Origin: an archaeon
GTDB lineage: Archaea > Iainarchaeota > Iainarchaeia > Iainarchaeales > Iainarchaeaceae
NCBI GenBank assembly: GCA_038046625.1
Contig: JBBSVV010000032.1
Location: forward strand, 1 to 23,064
Direction of reading: 5' to 3'
DNA: 23,064 nt
The position numbers were made by a program, and so were the translations under genes. The notes under the pieces are model-generated. The model was given only the letters and a program-made list of their open reading frames with translations, was not told where the DNA came from and searched no databases. Positions 18,662 through 20,834 of the stretch are shown here, piece by piece; the first letter of the stretch is position 1, and each line of letters begins with the position of its first letter.

Positions 18662-20834
18662 ATGAGCGGAAAAGGCAAGTTCTATATTACAACTGCAATT
18701 GATTACCCCAACTCTAAGCCCCATCTTCGGCCACGCTTACGAGAAAACTGTTGCTGATTGCCTCGCGCGCTGGCACCGCTTGAAGGGCGAGGATGTTTTT
18801 TTCCTCACGGGGACGGATGAGCACGGCAAGAAAATCCAGGATGCCGCGGAAAAAGCGGGCAAGGAGCCGAAGCCTTTTGTTGATGCGCAGGTGAAGTCCT
18901 TCAAGGAACTCTGCGCCAAATGGGGCATTTCCTATGATAATTTCATCCGCACCACAGATGGAAAGCATGAAATGATTTGCCAAACCATTTTCCAGCGCGT
19001 GCTCGAAAAGGGCGACATTTATTTGGGCGAGTATGAAGGCCTTTACTGCAACGGGTGCGAAAGGTTTTACCTTGAAAAGGAGCTTGACTCGGGCCTCTGC
19101 CCCGTGCACAGGACAAGGCCGGCTCTTTTGAAGGAGGAGAGCTATTTTTTCAAAATGAACAATTATGCCTCGAAGTGGCTTGAGTTTGTCGAAAAAAACC
19201 CTGAATTCATTTTTCCCCTGCGCAGGCGCCAGGAAATAATCAACCGCGTTCAGGAAGGCCTGCGGGATTTGAGCGTTTCACGTACCAGTTTTCACTGGGG
19301 AATCCCGCTGAAAAACAATCCGGCGCACGTGATTTACGTTTGGTTTGACGCGCTCCTCAATTACCTTTCCGGAATAGATTACTCTTCGGAGAAATCAAAA
19401 AAATTCTGGCCCGCCGACATGCACGTAATCGGGAAGGACATACTGTGGTTTCATTCCGTAATCTGGCCGATAATGCTTTTCTCCGCGGGAATAGAGCCGC
19501 CGAAGAAAATTTTTGTGCATGGCTTCATCAATGACGCGTACGGCGAAAAAATGTCGAAATCCATTGGAAACGTAATCGACCCGATTGAGCTTGTTGAAAA
19601 GTACGGTGCGGATTCCGCGCGCTACTACCTTCTCCGAGAGATTCCGATGGGTGAGGACGGCAATTTCTCGGTTGCGGCAATGGTTGAACGCCATAACTCC
19701 GAGCTCGCGAATTCTTTGGGGAATTTGCTGCAGCGCACTCTAACCCTTACCGAAACAAGGCTCAACGGAACGGTTCCGAAGGCAAAAACGAGTGAGGCAC
19801 TTGTGAAGCAGCTCAATCTGGAAAAAATCGGCTCCTATATGGAGCGGCTTGAGGTTCATAATGCCTTGGCGGAAATTTTTTCTTTCGTGACGGCTTGTAA
19901 CCGCTTCGTGAACGGGAAGGAGCCGTGGAAGCTCAAGGGAAAAGCTTTGGAGGAAACGCTTTACTCTCTTTTGGACTCGCTGCGCATTATTGCAATCCTC
20001 GTTTCCCCGTTCATGCCGGGCTCGGCGGAAAAAATTTCTGCGCAATTGAACGTTCCCCTCGGCTCTTTGAATGATGCAAAATTCAATCTTCTCAAGGCAG
20101 GGGTGAAAATCGGCAAAAAGGACATTCTGTTCCAAAAGCTCGAGGCCCCGAAGGAGGAGGTGCGCGAGGGGAAGGCGCGCAGCATAGGGGTTTCAATCGA
20201 GCCGAAACTCAAAGAGCTGGATTTGAAGCTTGCCGTCGCCATAATAGAGAATGTCCGCGTTAAGAAGAAGCACGAAGGCCTGGACAAGAAAGCGAGGGAA
20301 GCCGTGAAGGCAATAAATCTGGGCGAGATTGAAAAGAGCCCCGTGATAAAGGGCTATTTGGAGCTGTATGACGCCTTGAAGGTGAAGCGCGGGAAGCACG
20401 CGGTCGCGAACTTGGTTGAGATTTCCGCGCAGTCGGGAAAATTGCCGACAATAAACACCGTGGTTGATTCTTACAATTTGGTTTCGATAAAAAAGGCTTT
20501 GATTGTCGGCGCGCATGATTTGGACAAGGTTTCCGGAAATGTCCGCGTGAAGATTGCGGATGGCTCCGGGCTTTACATTCCTCTCGGGCAAAGCGAAGCG
20601 ATGGAGGTTCCGAAGGGCGAGTACGTTTTTGCGGATGATAAGGTTGTTTTGTGCCGCATGGACGTGAAGCAAGGGGAGCACACGAAGGTGACAAACGAAA
20701 CGAAAAACGTTTTCCTTTACGTGCAGGGCAACAGGTACACGCCGCAGAAATACATTGATGACGCTTTGGAGGAAATCTGCGGGAACATTGTGAAGTATTG
20801 CGGCGGCTCGTGGCGGAAAGTTAAGGTCGAGTGA
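18662..20834 (+). CDS. metG: Methionyl-tRNA synthetase with C-terminal B3/B4 domain; +1 frameshift near 18725-18729
   Basis: ATG 18662 gives [22 protein letters not shown], then +1 frame GHAYE; GTDEHG, YVWFDAL, GKDILWFH, KMSKS. The last ~210 aa are B3/B4-like. Confidence 0.9.

Follow-up and report, generated by a model that had tools for sequence, protein, structure and literature searches.

Does an archaeal methionyl-tRNA synthetase (MetRS) proofread its product with a complete editing domain of its own? To our knowledge, MetRS is the textbook case of a class-Ia synthetase that lacks a post-transfer editing domain, and its fidelity is ascribed to the synthetic site together with pre-transfer cyclisation of homocysteine. 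The question is raised by one gene on contig JBBSVV010000032.1 of the archaeal assembly GCA_038046625.1, of which positions 1 to 23,064 were analysed (23,064 nucleotides; hereafter the window). The open reading frame (ORF) of this gene (18699..20834, plus strand, 711 aa as listed) encodes a MetRS that runs on, behind the anticodon-binding domain, into a module of the B3/B4 family. A reading made from the DNA letters alone (the sequence-only reading) had proposed such a fusion, and the Pfam scan agreed with it (tRNA-synt_1g, E 2.4e-95; B3_4, E 1.4e-20). The module is a whole copy of a free-standing deacylase family related to CtdA, the canavanyl-tRNA-Arg deacylase. It is somewhat probable, in our judgement, that it is an active deacylase, tethered to the synthetase, which edits tRNA-Met after transfer of an uncharged look-alike of methionine.

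The synthetase part of the ORF was recognised by several profiles. The tRNA-synt_1g match identifies a class I methionyl-tRNA synthetase, and Anticodon_3 (PF19303; aa 365-485, E 2.8e-8) is a MetRS-type anticodon-binding domain, in which the string DILFQKLE occupies aa 475-482 (nt 20121-20144). A CxxC...CPxH knuckle is located at aa 117-137 and KMSKS at aa 284-288. Both PRK12267 (603.9 bits; cut-off 598) and TIGR00398 (471 bits; cut-off 336) of NCBIfam matched the core. The PRK12267 match spans only model positions 19-522 of 648, and the unmatched tail is presumably the tRNA-binding appendix of that model. No tRNA_bind or OB domain was found by the Pfam scan of the ORF. The B3_4 family (PF03483) was matched at aa 562-677 with 74 bits, against a gathering score of 29.3, which is far above chance; the genome scan gave 76.9 bits. 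The motif strings named beforehand were all present, namely LPTINTVVDSYNLVS (aa 582-596), GAHDLDKVSG (aa 604-613), GEYVFADD (aa 640-647), VLCR (aa 650-653) and HTKVTNETKNVFL (aa 661-673). The proposed span, 20170-20834, agreed within about five codons with the module envelope, 20184-20831.

The sequence-only reading had also assigned the module to the editing type of the phenylalanyl-tRNA synthetase beta subunit (PheRS-beta), and this assignment did not hold. In comparisons with solved structures by sequence, CtdA was matched at E 7.6e-11 (9f7e) and S. enterica CtdA at E 1.3e-8 (9mkl); whereas bacterial PheRS-beta gave no better than E 4.7e-5. Among 1.84 billion representatives, a scan returned 1484 module relatives at E<=1e-3, including 535 at E<=1e-10. 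The 212-aa module piece aligned end to end (residues ~1-207), at 34-43% identity, with whole proteins of 211-237 aa that are free-standing. An AlphaFold2 model of the module, built from an alignment of 61 free-standing proteins (A1), reached a predicted local distance difference test (pLDDT) score of 96.5 and a predicted TM-score (pTM) of 0.91, and it has the expected B3/B4 fold. Foldseek compared this model with CtdA (9mkl/9f7e) at E about 1e-15 and TMq 0.83-0.84, and with bacterial PheRS-beta at TMq about 0.6. The same order was obtained with VIA-align: CtdA was superposed over 210-211 of 212 residues (Z 23.8, root-mean-square deviation 2.5), bacterial PheRS-beta over 164-165 residues (Z 15.2-17.9), and archaeal/eukaryal PheRS-beta over 149-150 residues (Z 13.1-15.1). 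The top fold matches, down to Z 9.0, were CtdA, PheRS-beta and two ribosome entries (40S) containing LRRC47. The module is thus a complete free-standing-type CtdA-like B3/B4 protein and not one of the PheRS-beta type. Its only B3_4 companion in the assembly is PheRS-beta itself, a separate gene on contig C49. The Pfam family B3_4 does detect that archaeal PheRS-beta, whereas the module profile made from A1 gave no match to it; the module therefore does not duplicate the editing domain that the host has in PheRS-beta.

CtdA (PDB 9F7E, 9MKL; PMC10018355, PMC12449066) has the same full-length fold, including the helical insert; however, it is free-standing, whereas the module is part of a MetRS ORF, and the identity is about 20%. 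PheRS-beta, which hydrolyses Tyr-tRNA-Phe, shares PF03483 and the core fold, about 150-165 of the 212 residues being superposable, and its editing domain sits in the PheRS beta subunit rather than in MetRS. In PMC12449066, an Asn is reported to position the catalytic water, and the editing-site residues of E. coli PheRS are given as R244, N254, Y255, H265, F267, A312, G318 and E334. Five of these positions were mapped by alignment to the P. aeruginosa PheRS-beta (4p71), whose numbering was taken as one below that of E. coli. At R244, Y255, H265 and F267 the module has Pro, Leu, Gly and His, in this order, and the Asn alone is common to both. By its taxa (Chloroflexi and archaea), the module family looks like the uncharacterised CtdA-2 rather than the characterised CtdA-1, a placement made from pairwise alignment and taxa, with trees that contain no CtdA-1 sequence.

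The fusion between MetRS and the module is not an artefact. Logan contigs from four runs of two studies, all labelled groundwater metagenomes, cover positions 18600-20900 without inserted or deleted letters and bridge the junction. Two contigs span this whole range (record 1 of run X1 and record 6 of run X2, both runs being possible sources of this DNA). Runs X5 and X6 carry no such source flag; there, the N-terminal part and the junction-containing part, from about 18957 or 19145 to 20900, lie on different contigs. Relatives gave the same picture, and none of the refuting conditions named beforehand that could be checked by computation was borne out. All 53 homologues in the band of 391-1245 aa carry both PF03483 and PF09334, and the names among their sources include Candidatus Diapherotrites, Nanoarchaeia and Bathyarchaeota. 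In species-representative genomes the module was fused to MetRS at 26 of 39 loci, with the record lineages Iainarchaeum/Diapherotrites, archaeon GW2011_AR10, Aenigmatarchaeota, Bathyarchaeota, 'Methanosarcinales' metagenome-assembled genomes, Woesearchaeota and Nanoarchaeia. At the other 13 loci it was free-standing (Chloroflexi, Nanoarchaeota, Woesearchaeota, Bathyarchaeota, Verrucomicrobiaceae, Thaumarchaeota, and two archaeal records without a lineage name), and 12 of these 13 have no aminoacyl-tRNA synthetase (aaRS) gene within 2.6 kb. Public annotation calls the MetRS-module proteins plain methionine--tRNA ligase.

Within the phylum of the window, module matches were found in 64 of 201 sampled genomes. 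Of 21 further genomes sampled from the family of the window, 20 keep the module, which suggests retention in small genomes (the present assembly is about 1 Mb), and one relative (L033) has a module 95% identical to that of the window. Frames were taken for matches down to E 1.6e-9, which came from 49 genomes. Among these, 29 have the MetRS fusion (29/201 of the phylum sample), 20 have a fusion with class I lysyl-tRNA synthetase (LysRS-I) and 11 have both. Of the remainder, nine contain just free-standing copies, and in two the matches are limited to contig-edge or mixed fragments. The other 15 matching genomes gave weak matches (E 4e-7 to 1e-3), 14 of them in frames of about 460-580 aa, which by their size are taken to be PheRS-beta. 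The LysRS-I fusions (PF01921 with a C-terminal B3_4; 20/201 genomes) include L023:468-2828 (-), L024:275-2653 (-), L025-L027 and L091-L114. A PF01921 scan did not find class I LysRS in the window's own assembly, which at 84.6% completeness does not imply its absence.

Two MetRS backbones, which differ deeply from each other, carry the module. The window type (A) has two tRNA-synt_1g stretches of about 320-360 bits. The second (B) has a single stretch of about 480-525 bits and is usually ~900 aa long, with tRNA_bind after the module; for example, P0042 has Anticodon_3 at 415-537, B3_4 at 604-728 and tRNA_bind at 770-859. The partners of 207 module-bearing proteins were assigned by BLAST to references, in a sample that is biased because one of its two source searches covered long proteins only. 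The census gave 54 MetRS of type A, four of type A with tRNA_bind, eight of type B, 12 of type B with tRNA_bind, six LysRS-I, one arginyl-tRNA synthetase (ArgRS), one protein with tRNA_bind only, and 121 in which a partner was not detected.

A quick IQ-TREE of 113 modules was reconstructed under LG+G4, with SH-aLRT support only. For this tree the near-identical Iainarchaeum rows were cut to eight, and every second apparently complete free-standing row and the apparently truncated rows without a partner were omitted. The trees were unrooted or midpoint-rooted, because the host PheRS-beta is undetected by the module profile and hence unusable as an outgroup. A branch with SH-aLRT 91 set off 54 of the 56 MetRS-fused rows and 18 free-standing ones from the rest of the tree. 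The two backbones were intermixed; for example, P0104 (A with tRNA_bind) paired with P0158 (B with tRNA_bind) at support 100. The LysRS- and ArgRS-fused rows grouped apart from these, in a clade that also contained three free-standing rows (support 98). A FastTree of 187 rows showed the same broad picture. In one woesearchaeotal locus (L067), a gene for MetRS with tRNA_bind (412-2571) is followed by a free-standing B3_4 gene (2553-3230) with a 19-nt overlap, and this pair represents the fusion in split form, its domains standing in another order.

Editing folds are found both in cis and free-standing in other systems, including INS/YbaK/ProXp for prolyl-tRNA synthetase (ProRS), AlaX for alanyl-tRNA synthetase (AlaRS), and the archaeal ThrRS-ed for threonyl-tRNA synthetase (ThrRS). 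The editing domains of ProRS, AlaRS and ThrRS show the same pattern of fused, split (here L067) and free-standing copies; however, their fold differs from that of the module. Other combinations were also met. Among the best 150 module relatives, P0147 (1124 aa) has two tandem B3_4 modules ahead of ArgRS. P0076 (387 aa) joins a YbaK-type tRNA_edit domain to B3_4, P0057 (563 aa) joins a GFO/IDH/MocA oxidoreductase to B3_4, and P0083 (414 aa) has B3_4 and tRNA_bind without a synthetase.

The position of the module raises the possibility of a non-catalytic appendix, which would increase the affinity for tRNA or dimerise the enzyme in place of the Trbp111/EMAPII-like OB domain. C-terminal domains of MetRS often dimerise the enzyme. 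MetRS enzymes with a C-terminal tRNA_bind domain of this type (PF01588) have the same catalytic core and anticodon-binding domain, and their appendix is attached at the same position, where the PRK12267 match of the window protein ends (522/648). The appendix in the window is, however, a deacylase fold, whereas that of the Trbp111-type MetRS is an OB fold. The helical insert of the module is basic (K+R 15 versus D+E 8 in 64 residues) and is placed in a helical region of the model, which would also suit an RNA-binding role. An alpha-hairpin that binds tRNA is proposed for CtdA in the CtdA preprint, and the basic insert may be a candidate equivalent of it. S. enterica CtdA is a dimer, according to PMC12449066. 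A homodimer prediction with two module copies scored 0.00 against a mark of 0.42 and was counted neither for nor against dimerisation. The sequence-only reading had likewise placed the module in the stead of the Trbp111/OB-fold appendix. This is right for the lineage of the window but not in general, since 10 of the 53 fused homologues (about 890-920 aa) also carry tRNA_bind (PF01588) after B3_4. In these ~900-aa relatives the module lies between the anticodon-binding domain and tRNA_bind, unlike in the plain tRNA_bind MetRS. Because both domains occur together, the module is no mere substitute for tRNA_bind, and a purely non-catalytic role is considered unlikely. The residues of the predicted pocket also count against it, as follows.

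In PMC12449066, the aminoacyl pocket of CtdA comprises N105, G116, E118, C166, Q173 and I189, and a docking pocket is formed by N170, W171 and R172; the changes N105A, G116H/W, Q173G and C166G are reported there to abolish protection or activity. These residues were mapped onto the module by HMMER alignment, with a chain-to-paper offset of 2 that was checked on N105, V115, G116, E118, C166, N170-Q173 and I189. The 'T104' of the paper misfits this offset, the chain residue there being Tyr. The Asn, Gly, Cys and Gln of CtdA are kept in the module (N105 as N94, G116 as G105, C166 as C153 and Q173 as Q159); whereas E118 is replaced by H107, N170-W171-R172 by D156-V157-K158, and I189 by Y175. In ORF numbering, the predicted pocket consists of N593, G604, H606, C652, D655, V656, K657, Q658 and Y674, in which D655, V656 and K657 were obtained by counting from C652. 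Because E118, N-W-R and I189 are replaced, the cationic side chain of canavanine or arginine is unlikely as the substrate of the module.

The pocket residues were then compared among modules with different partners. In 77 MetRS-fused modules, position 94 is always N, position 105 is G in 72, position 107 is H in 68 (Y in eight, N in one), position 153 is C in 67 (T in seven, G in three), position 159 is Q in 75 (E in two), and position 177 is Q in 72. The six LysRS-I modules have D (four), E (one) or F (one) at position 107, W (five) or Y (one) at position 157, and E (five) or D (one) at both positions 159 and 177. In one ArgRS fusion, both modules show E, W, Q and D at positions 107, 157, 159 and 177. 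An independent set from the phylum scan, with partner alignments of at least 100 aa, included 28 MetRS and 19 LysRS-I modules. Here the MetRS modules have H 25 and Y 3 at position 107, D 25, V 2 and L 1 at position 156, V 19 and others 9 at position 157, K 25 and R 3 at position 158, Q 28 at position 159, and Q 27 and M 1 at position 177. The LysRS-I modules of this set have D 14, E 4 and V 1 at position 107, and are uniform (19 each) at position 156 (N), 157 (W), 158 (R), 159 (E) and 177 (E). The LysRS- and ArgRS-fused modules keep an acidic, CtdA-like pocket (E/D...N-W-R); whereas the pocket of the MetRS-fused modules is neutral. This split is the one to be anticipated if the near-cognates of a synthetase are edited by the module fused to it.

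These data bear on two of the alternatives. For the non-catalytic appendix, it is unfavourable that residues with a role only in catalysis or amino-acid binding are kept (N 77/77, G 72/77, Q 75/77), and that the pocket residues change jointly from the MetRS to the LysRS/ArgRS fusions, which RNA binding or dimerisation would not predict. The second alternative is that the module is an active deacylase whose substrate is not an error of MetRS but methionine on non-Met tRNAs, another mis-acylated tRNA or a canavanine-like product, the fusion serving only co-expression or localisation. Mis-methionylation of other tRNAs by MetRS is known, the closest characterised relative (CtdA) acts on tRNA-Arg, and the free-standing relatives with a neutral pocket are widespread and mostly remote from aaRS genes (12 of the 13 loci above). 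However, the replacement of E118 and NWR (by H and D-V-K) in the MetRS fusions, with their retention in the LysRS/ArgRS fusions, argues against a cationic substrate. Moreover, the module has been joined repeatedly to MetRS, on two backbones, and is encoded by the adjacent gene in L067. This alternative is considered quite unlikely.

The preferred reading, post-transfer editing of tRNA-Met, agrees in kind with the sequence-only reading, which had inferred either a dedicated module for such editing or a tethered trans-editing deacylase. It is supported by the domain identity, the fold, the essential CtdA residues, the two backbones, the split gene and the pocket that co-varies with the synthetase. 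From these we infer hydrolysis of aminoacyl-tRNA, tRNA-Met as the target, and the kind of amino acid that is removed. The gene product would have three parts: a bacterial-like MetRS core of the PRK12267 type, an anticodon-binding domain, and a predicted CtdA-like deacylase tethered by a linker. MetRS might attach a non-cognate, uncharged, straight-chain look-alike of methionine to tRNA-Met, and the candidates known from MetRS biochemistry are norleucine-, homocysteine- and ethionine-type amino acids. The module would recapture the mischarged tRNA-Met and hydrolyse it; whereas Met-tRNA-Met would be spared. It would presumably act by resampling after release (tethered trans-editing), and not by a swing of the CCA end with the anticodon still bound. 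When the intact relative P0002 was modelled at full length (alignment A2, 39 rows), the mean pLDDT was 91.8 and the pTM 0.72, with a pLDDT of 69 in the linker block 491-500. The pTM, the low linker score and the variable linker sequence among relatives are weak hints that the module may be flexibly tethered and may recapture the released product, rather than form a fixed second site.

Several observations weigh against this reading. The classic error of MetRS, homocysteine, is removed before transfer, and post-transfer editing may therefore not be needed. The module is attached behind the anticodon-binding domain, the pTM of P0002 is only 0.72, and the CCA end may fail to reach the pocket. The MetRS allele of the window has a frameshift in its HIGH motif, as discussed below. 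The neutral His pocket is the commonest in the free-standing relatives too (H 89/101), and it may be the default or ancestral state of the family rather than an adaptation to MetRS. In the MetRS-fused modules, the Cys is missing from 10 of 77 (T 7, G 3) and the Gly from five of 77. Three pocket positions differ from those of CtdA (E118 to H, W171 to V and I189 to Y), and the substrate therefore cannot be read off from them. In addition, PMC12449066 reports the Cys as missing or different in the CtdA-2 clade. This is at odds with our alignment, in which 89 of 101 free-standing modules and 67 of 77 modules fused to MetRS have a Cys aligned to C166 of CtdA. The mismatch could come from a one-residue indel that shifts the alignment, or from two different clades being compared.

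The window copy of the gene is itself interrupted (Table 1). Three intact relatives (L030, L031 and L032) have CAT CTC/TTG GGC/GGT CAC/CAT, which encodes PHLGH in-frame; whereas the window has CAT CTT C GGC CAC. HIGH and KMSKS are thus found in a single frame in the relatives, and HIGH is split in the window copy. The insertion is present in the contigs of all four runs from the two studies, without an indel variant. Judged from the sequence, this allele would need a +1 frame correction to give an active enzyme. One explanation is that the copy is dead or dying here, being broken at codon 22/23, so that the fusion would be uninformative on the physiology of this cell. The single-nucleotide insertion relative to the three intact relatives, invariant in all these contigs, fits such a copy. 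Avoidance of in-frame CTT-CGG, as a sign of programmed +1 frameshifting, was not seen either (15 observed versus 14.9 expected in the genome), so that no specially shifty site is marked.

However, this is the sole MetRS found, a profile scan having detected no second one in the assembly (84.6% complete). After the shift, 711 codons are open and match the relatives, the module being up to 76% identical to theirs, which fits a very recent or tolerated change. CGG, in the A-site position of CUU-CGG-C, is a minor codon (7.6% of the Arg codons, 3.6 per 1000), and tRNA-Arg(CCG) is absent among the 25 tRNAs found in the assembly. The heptamer resembles the yeast Ty1 +1 site CUU-AGG-C. A dead copy is accordingly regarded as very unlikely. 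The window copy may carry a frameshift that is tolerated or corrected, may have been inactivated recently, or may be accompanied by a second metG in the missing 15% of the assembly. As a separate observation, in-frame CTT-AGG is rare in the open frames of at least 300 codons in this genome (13 observed versus 88.5 expected from the codon frequencies), a deficit that may come from a bias in dinucleotides or from Ty1-like shifty sites being avoided.

Table 1. Position of the MetRS gene parts and the adjoining ORF in the window
Feature	Position	Strand	Remarks
N-terminal 22 MetRS codons (true start), ATG to Leu of HIGH	18662..18727	+	Other frame than the rest; translation from 18662 runs into a stop
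One-base insertion splitting HIGH between PHL and GHAY	18725..18731	+	CTC in genus mate, CTTC here
MetRS catalytic (Rossmann) domain	18729..19742	+	tRNA-synt_1g, PRK12267; genome-scan stretches 18726-19112 and 19077-19742
MetRS anticodon-binding helical domain, ending in DILFQKLE	19791..20153	+	Anticodon_3
Charged linker of ~13 residues after DILFQKLE	20145..20183	+	Sequence differs between relatives
Complete CtdA-like B3/B4 aminoacyl-tRNA deacylase module (predicted), aa 496-711	20184..20831	+	Profile from free-standing relatives, Pfam, model, structure matches
Predicted aminoacyl pocket	20475..20720	+	Mapped onto CtdA by alignment
Downstream ORF, 218 aa	20831..21487	+	GTG start overlaps MetRS stop by 4 nt; 0 Pfam families

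The host is a small DPANN-type archaeon, with an assembly of 986 kb in 57 contigs. The neighbours of the MetRS gene are archaeal, including an intein-bearing MCM gene and an aIF5A-like gene. The intein that interrupts the MCM helicase gene (14358-18047, minus strand) has a LAGLIDADG endonuclease and an HTH_3 segment. The ORF downstream of MetRS is probably co-transcribed with it, because it starts 4 nt ahead of the MetRS stop codon. With this ORF included, three plus-strand ORFs of 153-218 aa (20831-21487, 22074-22568 and 22574-23035) have no Pfam match.

No paper describing a MetRS-B3/B4 architecture was found in PMC (about 8.1 million papers) or among 0.36 million preprints, with subscription-only literature and preprint supplements outside this search. 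In the same sources, nothing on B3/B4 together with LysRS was found beyond a PheRS review, which also came up for MetRS; one further paper has the word methionyl in a reference only, and PF03483 was met in a single, unrelated preprint. In the accessible text of two papers on CtdA structure and evolution (one of them PMC12449066), the words MetRS, methionyl, fused and fusion are absent, and Table S2 of PMC12449066 has no 'methionine' entry. The table of shared aaRS domains in AARS Online, as far as it was accessible, shows no B3/B4 or editing domain for MetRS. A conserved MetRS with a complete deacylase would extend the aaRS repertoire by a new editing system, in cis or tethered. Several archaeal lineages have the architecture, which is built on either of two MetRS backbones and also occurs in split form as two adjacent genes.

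A wider reading is offered tentatively, as possible but somewhat short of probable. The CtdA-like B3/B4 protein might be a portable proofreading cassette that was captured by at least MetRS, class I LysRS and ArgRS, with its pocket tuned for each partner, neutral with His/Gln for methionine and acidic, as in CtdA, for lysine and arginine. The MetRS fusions would then be the first dedicated post-transfer editing domain for methionine, and the large free-standing, apparently CtdA-2 clade would proofread tRNA-Met charged with methionine analogues. These three partners are class I synthetases for long straight side chains. If this is true, a role for the free-standing CtdA-2-like proteins could be assigned by Rosetta-stone logic from the MetRS fusions; the function of these proteins is left open in PMC12449066, and the fusion offers a handle on it. 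The neutral MetRS-fused and acidic LysRS-fused modules within one genome also represent a natural experiment on the retuning of the B3/B4 pocket. The conserved fusion suggests that methionine charging is proofread after transfer in these lineages, and it raises the question of why genome-reduced, host-dependent archaea of ~1 Mb would keep extra proofreading for methionine and lysine.

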